Shown piece after piece: positions 4,641 through 20,654 of a DNA stretch of 64,000 nt. Made by a program: the position numbers and the translations under genes. The notes under the pieces were generated by a model. That model worked only from the letters and a program-made list of their open reading frames with translations, did not search any database and was not told the DNA's origin. The stretch spans positions 26,441-90,440 of the forward strand of contig JACRPM010000010.1 of assembly GCA_016223205.1 (NCBI GenBank). The letters run 5' to 3'. Position 1 is the stretch's first letter. Each line of letters starts with the position of its first letter. This DNA comes from Candidatus Saganbacteria bacterium. Lineage in GTDB: Bacteria; Margulisbacteria; WOR-1; XYC2-FULL-46-14; WPAF01.

Positions 4641-6866
4641 ATGGTGGCCCAGTACCGCGAGATAAAAGCCCGCCACCAGGATGCTATCCTCTTTTACCGC
4701 TTGGGGGATTTTTACGAAATGTTCAACGAGGACGCCGAGCTCGCCAGCCGGGAGTTGGACCTGACTTTGACCGGCCGCGGCAAGGATGAGAACCGCATGC
4801 CCATGTGCGGCATTCCTTATCATGCGGCGCAGGGCTACATTGCCCGGCTGATCGAGAAGGGCTACAAGGTAGCTATCTGCGAACAGACCGAAGATCCCAA
4901 CCTGGCCAAGGGATTGGTCAAAAGGGAGGTCGTTCGCATCGTGACCCCGGGGACGGTGCTCGAATCCGATCTATTGTCCGAAAAAAGCAGCAACTATCTG
5001 GCGGCGATCTCTTTGGAGAAGGGGAAATACGGGCTGGCTTATGTCGAGGCCTCGACCGGCGAGTTCAAGACGACCGATTTTACGGATGAAACACAGCTTA
5101 AAGCCGAGATCGACCGCATCGCTCCCGCCGAGACCATCGCCGCAAAAAACGGCTCCGCGGTTGACGCCATACTAGAATATCTCAAGCAAAACCGCAAGAC
5201 CCGCTTAGGGCATATTGGAGAGGCGGTAAGATATTCGGTCGGCGAGTTCATGCTGATCGATCCGCAAACCCGGCGGAATTTGGAGCTTATCCAGACCATC
5301 CGCGACCGGGCTTTTAAAGGAAGCTTGCTTTGGGTTTTAGACCAGTGCCGGACCAGCATGGGCAGCCGCCTGCTTAAAAATTGGCTGCTGGCGCCGCTGC
5401 TCAACCGGGAGGAGATCGAGCGGCGGCTGGAGGCGGTGGCGGAATTACATGGAAACGCCATCCTGCGCGCCGAATTGTCCAGAGAACTCGATCAGGTCTT
5501 TGATATCGAGAGATTGACCGGAAGGGCGGCCTCCGGCGCCGCCAACGCGCGCGACCTTATCTCTTTGGCCGAATCCTTAACGCATTTGCCCCGTATCGCC
5601 GATATTCTGAAAAATTCCAAAACCTTGAAAGTTCCAAATCCCTTGCCCGAAGTAACGGACCTTATCCATAGGGCGATCGTAAATGACCCGCCGTTTGTCT
5701 TGACCGCAGGCGGGATCATCAAGGATGGATATAATGCCGAGCTCGATGAGCTCAAGCAGGCGGCTCGCGGCGGTAAAAGCTGGATCACGGAGCTGGAGAA
5801 TAAAGAACGCCTGCGCACCGGCATCAAATCCCTCAAAGTCGGTTTTACCAAGGTGTTCGGCTACTATATCGAAGTGAGCAACGCCAATCAATCAGCGGTT
5901 CCCGCCGATTATATCCGCAAGCAAACCCTGGTGAACTGCGAGCGCTTTATCACCCCGGAGCTCAAGGATAAAGAATCTTTCATCTTGAACGCCGAAGAAC
6001 GGCTGAAGGACATGGAATATAAGATATTCTGCGAAGTCCGCGAACAGGTCGCGGAGCACACCAAAGAGCTTCAATCCATCGCCCGCCAACTGGCCCGGAT
6101 AGATGTTCTGCTTTCTTTGGCCGAAGTCGCGGTCGCCAACAATTTCTGCCGCCCCCGGATCACCGGATCAGCGGATATCCGGATAACCGAATCGCGTCAC
6201 CCGGTTGTCGAAAAAACTCTCGGAGAACAAAAATTCACCCCAAACAACATTGTGATGGATGCTGAATCGCGATTTCTCATGATTACGGGGCCAAACATGG
6301 CGGGGAAAAGCACGTATATGCGGCAAGTTGCCCTCATCTGCCTTATGGCCCAGATCGGCTCCTTTGTCCCGGCCGCATCCGCCGAGCTTGCGATCATCGA
6401 CCGCATCTTTACCCGCATCGGGGCCATGGACGACATTTTCTCCGGCCAGTCCACCTTTATGCTGGAGATGACCGAGACCGCCAATATCTTAAAGAACGCA
6501 ACCGAGAACAGCTTGATAATTCTCGATGAAATAGGGCGGGGGACGGCGACTTTTGACGGCATGTCGATCGCGGCGGCGGTGGCGGAATATATCCACGAAA
6601 AGATCAAAGCGAAAACCTTATTCGCCACGCATTATCACGAAATAACCCAGCTGGCGGAAAAACACCCCGGCATGAAAAATTTCAATGTTCTGGTCAAAGA
6701 AGTTGGGGAGGAAATCACCTTTTTGCATAAGATCGCGGAGGGCCCGGCGGACAAATCTTACGGCATCGCGGTAGCCAAGCTGGCGGGCTTGCCCGCTGAA
6801 GTGGTTAAGCGCGCGCGCGAGGTCTATAATACGCTCGAAATGGCGGAAACCGACTTACTTGGCTAA
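4641..6866 (+). CDS. mutS: DNA mismatch repair protein MutS (lacks the C-terminal tetramerisation tail)
   Basis: Canonical N-terminus [34 protein letters not shown]. Walker A [15 protein letters not shown]. Track ORF starts at 4542, but that region is a palindromic repeat. Start placed at ATG 4641 (MVAQY). Confidence 0.85.
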   Translation: [741 protein letters not shown]

Positions 6867-19013: not shown

Positions 19014-20654
19014 ATGGGCAAGGCCTATTTGGGCCGGGCGGACGATATCGGCTCGCTGTTCATTAATCCCGCGGGGTTAGCGAACATCAAGGAGTGGCAA
19101 GCTACCTCCATGTCCGGCAAATTCATCAACGAGTTCAATTATCTTAATCTGGGATTTGCTTATCCCACCCGTTTCGGCACTTTCGGGTTTGGGTTCACTG
19201 GTTCCGACATCTCTTTTTCCGGTCCGGCGGCGGTCTTGGAATCGATCGATGGGGTAAGGGTGGTGCCTTCCACCACCGAGACCGTTTCTTATGGGTACAA
19301 CAACAGCGTGATGCTTTTGGGATACGGCGGGAAGGCGCGCGAAGATCTAGCGGTCGGCTTGACCTTAAAGCTTTTCTCTCCCATCCTTACCGGCCCGCAG
19401 ATCACGGGGGGTACGGCGCGGGGATTCGACGCCGACCTGGGTTTTTTATATGAGCCGCGTCCGGCAGTGCGGATGGGCGTTACGGTGCAGAACTTCGTCC
19501 CTTATTCTTTGGGCGGCAAGATACGCTGGGGGAACGGACAGGAAGAATCCTTTCCCTCGACCCTAAAGACCGGATTAAGCTTGATCTTAATGGGAGAAAA
19601 AGGGATCAGGAAGTTCGGTCAACAAGAACTCAAATTTAACTTTGACGGGGATTTTACCCCTCTGCGCCCCACTATCCCCAGCTTGTACCATCTGGGCCTG
19701 GAGTGGTCGCCGGTTTTGATCCTTGATCTGCGATTGGGGATCGACCAGGATATTATCGGGAAGGGCGGGGGACTGCTCGATGTCTCGAACAACTTTACCA
19801 CCGGAGTGGGAATTTACCTTGATGGCTTCCGTTTCGATTATGCCTTCCACCAGTATTATGGGGCGGTAGAGAACGATACCCATTATTTCTCCGTAAGCTA
19901 TGGGATCTTCAGGGAGCCCCCTCCTAAAGTCATAAAAGAACACCTGCATGTGATCGCGCCCGCCGATCGCGCCGTCTTTTACACCGATAAGGTCCCGGTC
20001 CTGGCGCAGGCGCTCGATCCGGAGATCAAACGGATCACCGTTGCCGGCCGAACCTGGAACGCGACCGCTGAAGAGATCGGGCTGGGGGTCGGAAAAAATC
20101 TTATATCGGTCGAGGGCTGGTCCGCTGCCGGTCGAAAAGTTGAGACCATCTACCTGCGGGAGCTGCGCCTGCTTTCTTTCAAAGATGTGGATGAGATCTA
20201 TTGGGCGCGACCCCCCATAGAACGGCTGGCGACATTGGGAATTTTGCGCGGTTATCCGGACGGCGACTTTAAGCCGCAGGAAAGGGTGCGGCGGCAGGAT
20301 CTTGCCGCTCTTTTGGCCCGGCTGATAAGCCCGGAAGCCCAAACCGAAGTTGCCGATCCCAAAAGATATGTCACCCGGGCCGAAGCGGTGACCATGATCT
20401 ATAATTTCGGCGGGGTCGCTCCCGTGCCGGTGCTCGAAAGTCCTTTTCCCGATATTCCCGGAAGATATTGGGCCGCAGGGGCAATATATGCGGCCAAATC
20501 GGCGGGGATCTTGAAATATCTGGAGGGTGGGAACTTTCTTCCGGGTAAGGAGCTCACCCGCGCCGAGATGGCCGAGCTGCTTTCCCGCGTCCCGTCGATA
20601 AAAGCGAGGATCGACTACCTTCTGGACTTTGAGCGGGGTTTTGCGGTAAAATAG
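19014..20654 (+). CDS. FadL/OmpP1-family (PorV-like) outer-membrane beta-barrel fused to two C-terminal SLH domains
   Basis: N-terminal motif VGARILGMGKAYLGRADDIGSLFINPAGLA is the FadL/TodX signature (G.G.A...DDA....NPA). C-terminal SLH repeats FKDVDEIYWARPPIERLATLGILRGYPDGDFKPQERVRRQDLAALLARL and FPDIPGRYWAAGAIYAAKSAGILKYLEGGNFLPGKELTRAEMAELLSRV. The reading frame is open upstream to about 18885 and encodes a signal peptide (IIGISLVIAVSSFGFSAQA) with no canonical start codon, so the true 5' end is uncertain. Confidence 0.6.
   Translation: MGKAYLGRADDIGSLFINPAGLANIKEWQATSMSGKFINEFNYLNLGFAYPTRFGTFGFGFTGSDISFSGPAAVLESIDGVRVVPSTTETVSYGYNNSVMLLGYGGKAREDLAVGLTLKLFSPILTGPQITGGTARGFDADLGFLYEPRPAVRMGVTVQNFVPYSLGGKIRWGNGQEESFPSTLKTGLSLILMGEKGIRKFGQQELKFNFDGDFTPLRPTIPSLYHLGLEWSPVLILDLRLGIDQDIIGKGGGLLDVSNNFTTGVGIYLDGFRFDYAFHQYYGAVENDTHYFSVSYGIFREPPPKVIKEHLHVIAPADRAVFYTDKVPVLAQALDPEIKRITVAGRTWNATAEEIGLGVGKNLISVEGWSAAGRKVETIYLRELRLLSFKDVDEIYWARPPIERLATLGILRGYPDGDFKPQERVRRQDLAALLARLISPEAQTEVADPKRYVTRAEAVTMIYNFGGVAPVPVLESPFPDIPGRYWAAGAIYAAKSAGILKYLEGGNFLPGKELTRAEMAELLSRVPSIKARIDYLLDFERGFAVK

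Follow-up and report, generated by a model that had tools for sequence, protein, structure and literature searches.

Paired genes for CTD-bearing surface proteins and PorV-like barrels fused to SLH or TPR domains: candidate wall-tethered display modules in Candidatus Saganbacteria

In a 64-kb stretch of a metagenome-assembled genome (MAG) of Candidatus Saganbacteria (phylum Margulisiibacteriota), hereafter the window, two genes for large secreted proteins ending in a C-terminal domain (CTD) of a kind known from type IX secretion systems (T9SS) are each directly followed by a gene for an outer-membrane barrel related to PorV. We call the secreted proteins cargo 1 and cargo 2 and their partners barrel 1 and barrel 2; barrel 1 carries fused S-layer homology (SLH) domains and barrel 2 fused tetratricopeptide repeats (TPR). 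We are moderately inclined to regard each pair as a cognate display module, in which the cargo would dock non-covalently through its CTD on an anchor barrel that is itself tied to the cell wall. The argument is built on domain architectures, a PorV-like fold, the homology of the CTDs and a conserved operon-like pairing, all of which were established directly. A preliminary description of the window had already remarked that both CTD proteins are immediately followed by paralogous barrels with the N-terminal signature of FadL and PorV, and every element of that arrangement was found in its place.

The tail of cargo 2 scores above both curated cutoffs for such domains (27.4 bits with PF18962, cutoff 27; 28.3 bits with TIGR04183, cutoff 23). 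A profile of its family (A5) matches, among the structures in the PDB, the CTDs of PorZ (5m11_A, E 2e-8) and PorU (6za2_A, E 4e-3) and, in 8glj_D (E 1e-3), the CTD of a T9SS substrate caught in the SprA translocon; WD40 matches returned by the CTD profile were set aside as spurious, no aligned stretch passing. The tail of cargo 1 reaches 17-18 bits on TIGR04183, under the cutoff of 23, and 96 bits (E 2e-28) on a CTD hidden Markov model (HMM) of our own, made from 22 tails of proteins whose genes lie upstream of homologous barrels. When its profile (A4) was compared with A5 by hhalign, the two aligned with 96.5% probability (E 7.9e-10). Judged by these profiles, the CTD of cargo 1 is homologous to that of cargo 2. 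The model of type-B CTDs, TIGR04131, matched neither cargo, and on sequence criteria both tails are classed as type-A-like. Ahead of its CTD, cargo 1 comprises a Sec signal peptide, about eight right-handed beta-helix modules (Beta_helix, 134 bits; DUF1565, 128 bits; NosD) and immunoglobulin-like (Ig-like) domains matched by a run of Big_5, Kre9_KNH and Big_7. The best Pfam scores of cargo 2 are 137 bits for DUF7483 and 72 bits for Big_5, and its architecture recurs upstream of the orthologous barrels in L003, L005 and L085 (L-numbers designate related barrel loci, about 20 kb of each of which was inspected).

The motif GARxLGMGxA...DD...NPAGLA stands near the N-terminus of all three barrels of the window, the third being a paralogue farther along the stretch (barrel 3). 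Against the PorV/PorQ family model NF033709, which has a cutoff of 90 bits, barrel 2 scores above the line (120.2) and barrels 1 and 3 below it (77.6 and 49.2). None of them reaches the equivalog cutoffs for PorV, PorQ and PorV2 (NF033710, NF033711 and NF052325; 250, 220 and 325 bits), the best scores, all from barrel 2, being 41.7, 75.6 and 47.8 bits. Toluene_X (PF03349, cutoff 29.7) gives 24.3 bits with the N-terminal part of barrel 2 and no match with the other two; PorP_SprF matches none of the three in Pfam, and that annotation (PF11751) is carried by 2 among the 120 barrel homologues listed. Structurally they belong to the 14-strand FadL type, with PorV as the nearest solved structure. 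In the models of both barrel 1 and barrel 2 a segment of short helices that bears the motif precedes the first strand, and the FadL family is known to thread its N-terminal segment through the barrel (PMC12611786). The barrels are FadL-superfamily proteins nearest to PorV. The preliminary description had held that a firm clustering with FadL and not with PorV would speak against it; since sequence and fold both lean towards PorV, such a clustering is not what was observed.

The gene for barrel 1 begins only 11 nt after that of cargo 1, and its public model is truncated. That model, a protein of 546 aa starting at ATG 19014 and identical to an NCBI entry named 'S-layer homology domain-containing protein', is without a signal peptide and half of the conserved hatch motif, but the frame is open 5' of this codon and there supplies a signal peptide, IIGISLVIAVSSFGFSAQA, and the motif's first half. 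No ATG, GTG or TTG is present ahead of the signal peptide; the start is likely to be ATA 18897 or ATT 18900, with an AGGA (18888-18891) lying 5-8 nt upstream. The N-terminal extension is spanned by the homologue P0122 (86% identity over the query, 88% in alignment A1). An AlphaFold2 model made from a 25-sequence alignment (pLDDT 85) shows, after a hatch segment at the N-terminus, 14 strands (aa 68-335), followed by an Ig-like domain (350-424) and then by a helical SLH region (438-576). The Ig-like spacer, at whose position homologues have a PF09136-like domain, is presumably periplasmic. The SLH region (86 bits) matches the Sap SLH domain that binds the secondary cell-wall polymer (SCWP). The architecture of barrel, Ig and three SLH repeats is found in more than 120 protein clusters, nearly all of them labelled Margulisiibacteriota, Saganbacteria or WOR-1. 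Compared with the definition of OmpM, in which an N-terminal SLH domain and a stalk precede a C-terminal porin, the order is reversed and the barrel is of the FadL type.

Barrel 2, 100% identical to an entry named 'PorV/PorQ family protein [Candidatus Saganbacteria bacterium]' on a 92-kb contig, keeps its TPR fusion among homologues down to 44% identity, and the TPR domain is expected to be periplasmic. It belongs to a four-gene unit (40363-46899, minus strand) of cargo, barrel-TPR, a GspA/ExeA-like AAA_22 ATPase and a response regulator, whose successive genes overlap by 4, 1 and 4 nt and which is kept at 44-85% identity. The orthologues of barrel 2 at 55%, 49% and 44% identity are accompanied by a DUF7483/Big_5/CTD cargo, a Zn-ribbon/AAA_22 ATPase and usually a response regulator. 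The best family of the ATPase is the GspA/ExeA-like TIGR03015 (72 bits). Its layout, a signal or transmembrane segment, a TPR region, a Pro-rich linker, a transmembrane segment, a Zn-ribbon and the AAA_22 domain, suggests a bitopic protein with the TPR region in the periplasm and the Zn-ribbon and AAA_22 domains in the cytoplasm. The ATPase gene is found directly behind that of the barrel in L001-L005 and L085 as well as in 13 of the metagenome loci L088-L101, and in the metagenome loci it does so only in this closest group; the response regulator occupies the same position in L001, L003 and L085. Weak matches to the ATPase were also seen downstream of barrels at intermediate distance, and since the counterpart that was checked (L118) is a TPR-GAF-GGDEF protein, they are probably due to the TPR region common to both proteins. 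The ATPase itself is restricted to the Margulisiibacteriota group.

In the window the cargo-2 unit converges on a pseudopilin or type IV pilus cluster (GspH/ComGD-like, N_methyl, PilX_N; 37555-40166, plus strand). In L003 (13342-17230) it lies between pseudopilin genes and a set of PilM/N plus secretin, and no pilus genes are near it in L005 and L085. The farther groups of barrels go under the names 'PorV/PorQ family protein [Clostridia bacterium]' or '[bacterium]', and their cargo exceeds the PF18962 cutoff (30.4 and 30.5 bits). Downstream of these farther pairs are genes for a double-REC response regulator, a TPR-GAF-GGDEF cyclase or histidine kinases (L118:8071-10757, L120:8842-10314, L133:10837-12795), which hint at a link between CTD-barrel modules and signalling.

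The conservation of the pairing was followed in two sets of loci. One genome per GTDB species was scanned, which yielded 78 loci with 88 barrels, 81 of these barrels having readable upstream sequence; a metagenome scan with the barrel-2 family alignment gave 80 loci with 92 barrels, 85 of them readable upstream. Relatives of the barrel numbered at least 490 in the metagenomes. In the genome set, the gene preceding the barrel encodes a clearly recognisable CTD for at least 38 of 81 barrels, and the two genes are mostly no more than 70 bp apart. A group of divergent tails, aligned to the CTD profile with 95.9% probability, contains six more upstream tails from these loci, beside three that the CTD HMM had already detected. 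The corresponding count of barrels with a CTD-ending open reading frame (ORF) directly upstream is 68 of 85 in the metagenome loci. When CTD genes were found independently of the barrel by which the locus had been retrieved, another barrel followed in 6 of 19 cases (genomes) and 7 of 8 (metagenomes). Among 53 tails encoded upstream of related barrels, 19 match TIGR04183, 19 FlgD_ig, 16 the CTD end of the PorU model (positions 985-1095) and 11 that of the PorZ model (669-757), and three give weak matches to the type-B model TIGR04131. The upstream gene varies in size, from about 250 to more than 4000 aa, and in its domains, and keeps the same CTD; the barrels are present in 2-7 copies per genome, sometimes in tandem.

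Within the window, where two barrel HMMs of our own match exactly three ORFs (barrels 1, 2 and 3), there are about 50 genes, and the probability that both CTD genes would be directly followed by a barrel by chance is, by our own estimate, about 0.002. The pairing is not a matter of chance, because the adjacency recurs in more than 100 independent loci, and the arrangement that the preliminary description had noted in two cases is conserved across the phylum and beyond it. The genome loci that bear a phylum label are assigned to Margulisiibacteriota, Saganbacteria or WOR-1, with the exception of one Omnitrophota, and several are named only 'bacterium' or 'uncultured bacterium'; the closed Saganbacteria genome MEUD01000001.1 has two or more barrel loci. 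The exception, a barrel-SLH locus labelled Candidatus Omnitrophota (L007, DATJPS010000048.1), probably results from a mistake in binning or labelling. Not every member of the family shows the pairing: relatives in Elusimicrobia (L086) and FCPU426 (L087) have no recognisable CTD gene upstream of the barrel. Some barrels (L043, L044, L050) are preceded by genes for 700-aa proteins resembling BNR/YCF48, whose tails hhalign does not identify as CTD-like (probability 4%).

The cells in question appear to have an envelope of the OmpM type, as the preliminary description had proposed on finding an SLH-porin at 47183..48538. The SLH domain and stalk of this porin (aa 32-119) match SlpA (7zgx) and OmpM (8bys, 8bym) with E values from 5e-13 to 5e-12, the structures concerned being those of Veillonella OmpM1 and Deinococcus SlpA, and OmpM has been reported from Saganbacteria and Margulisbacteria (10.1101/2021.05.31.446380). 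The SLH domain of barrel 1 is a suitable element for such an envelope.

On the scheme that we favour, the cargo would be exported to the periplasm by Sec, ending in its T9SS-type-A-like CTD. At the surface this CTD would dock non-covalently on the extracellular loops of the 14-strand PorV/PorQ-like barrel encoded downstream, by analogy with PorU held by PorV and PorZ held by PorQ, and the passenger, with its beta-helix and Ig domains, would thereby be displayed on the cell. Both termini of the barrel are predicted to face the periplasm, and therefore the C-terminal domains fused to it would tie the complex to the wall. In the case of barrel 1 the tether would be made by the Ig and SLH domains, the latter predicted to bind the pyruvylated SCWP; binding by SLH domains depends on the pyruvyl transferase CsaB. 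In the TPR version, the TPR domain of the barrel may contact the periplasmic TPR region of the inner-membrane GspA/ExeA-like ATPase, which together with the response regulator might serve assembly through the wall or signalling. Precedents exist for such contacts at the surface: in the T9SS, PorV binds the CTD through its extracellular loops (PMC10994853), a contact exemplified by PorV with the RemZ CTD in PDB 8GL6 and related entries, PorU stays bound to PorV and PorZ to PorQ (PMC12365241), and BamG, a barrel of the FadL family, holds the surface lipoprotein BamH as a docking pillar (PMC12611786).

Several observations weigh against this scheme. The closest orthologues of barrel 1 are often without a cargo gene and follow pheA or a branched-chain aminotransferase gene instead; conversely, there is a family of CTD proteins of about 390 aa that has no barrel of its own. 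Since such orphan CTD proteins and cargo-less barrels both exist, the pairing is frequent and not obligatory. The distances among barrels and among CTDs co-vary weakly (Mantel r 0.157, a value reached by 76 of 2000 permutations), and barrels 1 and 3 stay under the NF033709 cutoff. The binding of the CTD to the barrel is moreover a predicted step, and the scheme does not account for the transport of a cargo of 4008 aa across the outer membrane. In a neighbour-joining tree the cargo-linked and cargo-less barrels fall in alternating clades.

Some neighbours of the barrel-SLH genes may be recorded here. The CTD family of about 390 aa lies near them in 12 loci (e.g. L065:14302-15471, minus strand, and L031:16278-17489, minus strand), and another family, of about 400 aa, was seen in 8 loci and directly adjoins it in L031; neither has a Pfam match. 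At 11-14 of the 78 genome loci, genes for MlaE, MlaF and MlaD, of the outer-membrane lipid asymmetry system, lie no more than about 8 kb from barrel-SLH genes (L019:7315-8109, L020:18020-19147 and L027:17279-18061 are examples).

Three other explanations have to be weighed, and the most serious of them, which we consider unlikely, is that a complete but divergent T9SS (SprA/Sov, PorKLMN, PorU) is encoded elsewhere in the genome and that the barrels are multiplied shuttles or anchors of the PorV/PorQ type, one for each cargo. The type-A-like CTDs do match those of T9SS substrates, of PorU and of PorZ, the barrels are closest to PorV, cognate gene pairs of shuttle and cargo are known for type-B cargo (PMC12618676), and the DNA inspected amounts to 64 kb of the source genome plus the related loci. 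Against this, no T9SS core family (SprA/Sov, PorK/L/M/N, PorU, PorT, PorW) was seen among the approximately 40 scanned proteins of the window, nor in the ten neighbour families that occur most often (884 called genes) around the 78 genome loci, and no barrel comes near the equivalog cutoffs for PorV, PorQ and PorV2. The host, moreover, stands outside the Bacteroidota and the wider Fibrobacteres-Chlorobi-Bacteroidetes (FCB) superphylum, and the T9SS was found only in Bacteroidetes in the TXSScan survey (PMC4793230) and has been described as confined to the FCB superphylum (PMC11205867). We found no paper that joins Margulisbacteria with type IX secretion, and none on secretion in Margulisbacteria or Saganbacteria.

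That the barrel is itself the export route, in the style of two-partner secretion or of the inverse autotransporters, with an unfolded cargo threaded through or alongside it with help from BAM, the machinery of beta-barrel assembly, and left attached by its CTD, seems to us improbable. The one-to-one pairing with very large beta-helix passengers recalls the TpsA/TpsB systems, no other translocon is visible nearby, and the periplasmic wall-binding domains fused to the barrel resemble the LysM domain that intimin carries. The short-helix motif segment at the N-terminus of the models argues otherwise, however, being threaded through the barrel in the FadL family (PMC12611786), of which no member is known to translocate protein; and although a conserved ATPase adjoins barrel 2, a cytoplasmic ATPase cannot directly power a step at the outer membrane. 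We similarly give little credence to the view that the barrels are envelope proteins in their own right, either OmpM-like tethers or FadL-type channels, and that their adjacency to the cargo reflects co-regulation and not partnership. The cargo-less barrel-SLH orthologues, which lie in conserved housekeeping neighbourhoods with pheA and genes for the branched-chain aminotransferase, arginyl-tRNA synthetase and MlaEFD, the 2-7 paralogues per genome, and the combination of SLH and barrel, which follows the logic of the OmpM tether (10.1101/2021.05.31.446380), are all in its favour, but the adjacency is too specific, the CTD remaining constant when the size and domains of the upstream gene vary, and sequence and fold lean towards PorV and not towards transporters. 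In addition, tethering and anchoring are not mutually exclusive functions.

Cognate anchoring modules, the reading that we prefer, have their nearest counterparts in the PorU-PorV and PorZ-PorQ pairs of Porphyromonas gingivalis, where a type-A CTD protein is held at the surface by a barrel of the PorV/PorQ family (PMC12365241). The resemblance extends to the sequences, the PorU and PorZ models matching tails here with their CTD ends, and to the fold, in which the barrels are nearest to PorV. The genes porU and porV are neighbours as well. In contrast to those pairs, the cargo here is adhesin-like (beta-helix, Ig, DUF7483) and not a sortase or a carrier of lipopolysaccharide; SLH or TPR domains are fused to the barrels; a single genome has several pairs, in a host that belongs to the Terrabacteria; no SprA, PorKLMN or sortase was seen; and the PorV and PorQ equivalog cutoffs are not reached. 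The linkage of a cargo gene to its own barrel gene (two out of two in the window) is shared with type-B CTD proteins, which stay bound to an adjacent PorP/SprF barrel that serves as a specific carrier and anchor (PMC12618676, PMC9143113), but the CTDs here are type-A-like and the barrels belong to the PorV/PorQ and not to the PorP/SprF family. The same wall-tethering logic is found in the PorE-PorP-PG1035 barrel-cargo complex of P. gingivalis (PMC9143113), to which PorE adds TPR domains and an OmpA_C-like domain that binds a peptidoglycan fragment (PMC7192894); in our case, however, the wall-binding module is an SLH region fused to the barrel instead of a separate OmpA-like lipoprotein. The module thus combines a type-A-like CTD and a PorV-like barrel with a gene pairing of the type-B sort, the wall-binding element being fused to the barrel.

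Among other envelope systems, the OmpM/SlpA tethers of diderm Terrabacteria likewise join an outer-membrane barrel to a periplasmic SLH domain that binds a wall polymer. BamG-BamH of the Bacteroidota differs in that BamH is a surface lipoprotein without a CTD and BamG a part of BAM with no SLH or TPR fusion. The FadL/TodX channels differ too, as Toluene_X is below its cutoff or absent here and the gene context is one of surface proteins and not of catabolic operons.

The preliminary description had gone further and suggested a cargo-specific, wall-tethered module for secretion or anchoring, of a kind not described for the T9SS. The type-A-like CTDs, the conserved adjacency and the OmpM-type envelope make a cognate wall-tethered anchoring module a reasonable reading, and so this part can be retained; the part concerning secretion finds no support, no translocon, motor or sortase gene having been seen in the DNA inspected. 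Nor does the assertion of novelty hold as it was worded, for PorE-PorP-PG1035 (PMC9143113, PMC7192894) and the attachment of PorU and PorZ to PorV and PorQ (PMC12365241) were already known. A wall-tethered complex of barrel and cargo has therefore a precedent, and what is new here is a variant with a PorV-like barrel and fused SLH or TPR domains.

The features discussed are collected in Table 1. Barrel 3, which the preliminary description had listed as a third paralogue, has the motif and scores well with both of our own HMMs. It has no fused domain and no cargo gene upstream, its upstream neighbour being a divergent Yip1 gene, and it contains an insertion of about 110 aa, rich first in lysine and glutamate and then in aromatic residues. 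After it come genes for a protein with TPR and a metallo-beta-lactamase fold and for an FHA-domain membrane protein (51145-55182, minus strand). The gene for the OmpM-like porin is followed by those for a glycosyltransferase resembling monogalactosyldiacylglycerol synthase and an NAD-dependent epimerase, a small envelope gene cluster (47183-50455, minus strand). Besides this porin and the pseudopilin cluster, the window has housekeeping and other genes (pheT, mutS, dnaB, alaS, guaA, bio genes and a GH94 phosphorylase) and a type IV toxin-antitoxin pair, AbiEii/AbiEi, flanked by guaA and guaB-like genes (29725-31151, minus strand).

Table 1. Coordinates of cargo, barrel and associated features in the window
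Feature	Position	Strand	Description
Cargo 1	6859..18885	+	4008-aa surface protein; ORF and translation
Cargo 1 CTD	18604..18882	+	C-terminal sorting/anchor domain, putatively of beta-sandwich type; divergent, type-A-like by sequence profiles
Barrel 1, full gene	18897..20654	+	Signal peptide, FadL/PorV-type barrel, Ig domain, SLH domains; start corrected (likely)
Barrel 1 hatch motif and 14-strand transmembrane barrel	18960..19931	+	aa 22-345
Barrel 1 Ig-like spacer	19944..20168	+	aa 350-424; all-beta in the model
Barrel 1 SLH region	20175..20651	+	aa 427-585; two intact repeats, one shortened
Response regulator	40363..40725	-	Single-domain; REC domain matches; last gene of the cargo-2 operon
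ATPase	40722..42191	-	AAA_22, 62.7 bits; TIGR03015 pepcterm_ATPase, 72 bits
Barrel 2, gene	42191..43645	-	PorV/PorQ-family barrel plus TPR; overlaps the cargo-2 gene by 4 nt
Barrel 2 TPR domain	42197..42754	-	aa 298-483; TPR_2, TPR_11, Fis1_TPR_C; all-helical in the structure model
Barrel 2 barrel domain	42758..43555	-	aa 31-296; 14-strand, PorV/PorQ family
Cargo 2	43642..46899	-	1085-aa secreted protein; five DUF7483 stretches, Big_5, type-A-like CTD
Cargo 2 CTD	43651..43899	-	aa 1001-1083; PF18962 and TIGR04183
OmpM-type porin	47183..48538	-	N-terminal SLH (43 bits), stalk, C-terminal barrel; fits the OmpM tether definition
Barrel 3	53902..55182	-	Divergent PorV/PorQ-family paralogue; NF033709 49.2 bits; own HMMs 76 and 97 bits

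An immediate consequence concerns annotation: most of the barrel-SLH proteins bear no other label than 'S-layer homology domain-containing protein', and the copy in the window, truncated in its public gene model, can now be corrected. T9SS-type CTDs and PorV-like barrels are usually treated as hallmarks of the Bacteroidota or of the FCB group, and the presence of one-to-one CTD-barrel gene pairs in a sister lineage of the Cyanobacteria suggests that the docking of CTDs on barrels is older, or broader, than the secretion machine. Such pairs offer a handle on the origin of the T9SS attachment complexes. A bolder extension, which we put forward tentatively and think rather doubtful, is that they constitute a self-contained system of surface display, independent of any T9SS and widely distributed among uncultured diderms beyond the FCB group, the candidates being the Margulisiibacteriota and MAGs labelled only 'Clostridia bacterium' or 'bacterium'. 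PorU-PorV and PorZ-PorQ would then descend from this simpler module or be related to it. In the Margulisiibacteriota its barrel would also serve as a new kind of SLH tether, and one version would be coupled to an inner-membrane GspA-like ATPase, making an envelope-spanning assembly. For envelopes of the OmpM type, the barrel-Ig-SLH protein would represent a second, previously unremarked tie between the outer membrane and the wall, and could account for the mechanical coupling of very large surface proteins to the sacculus.

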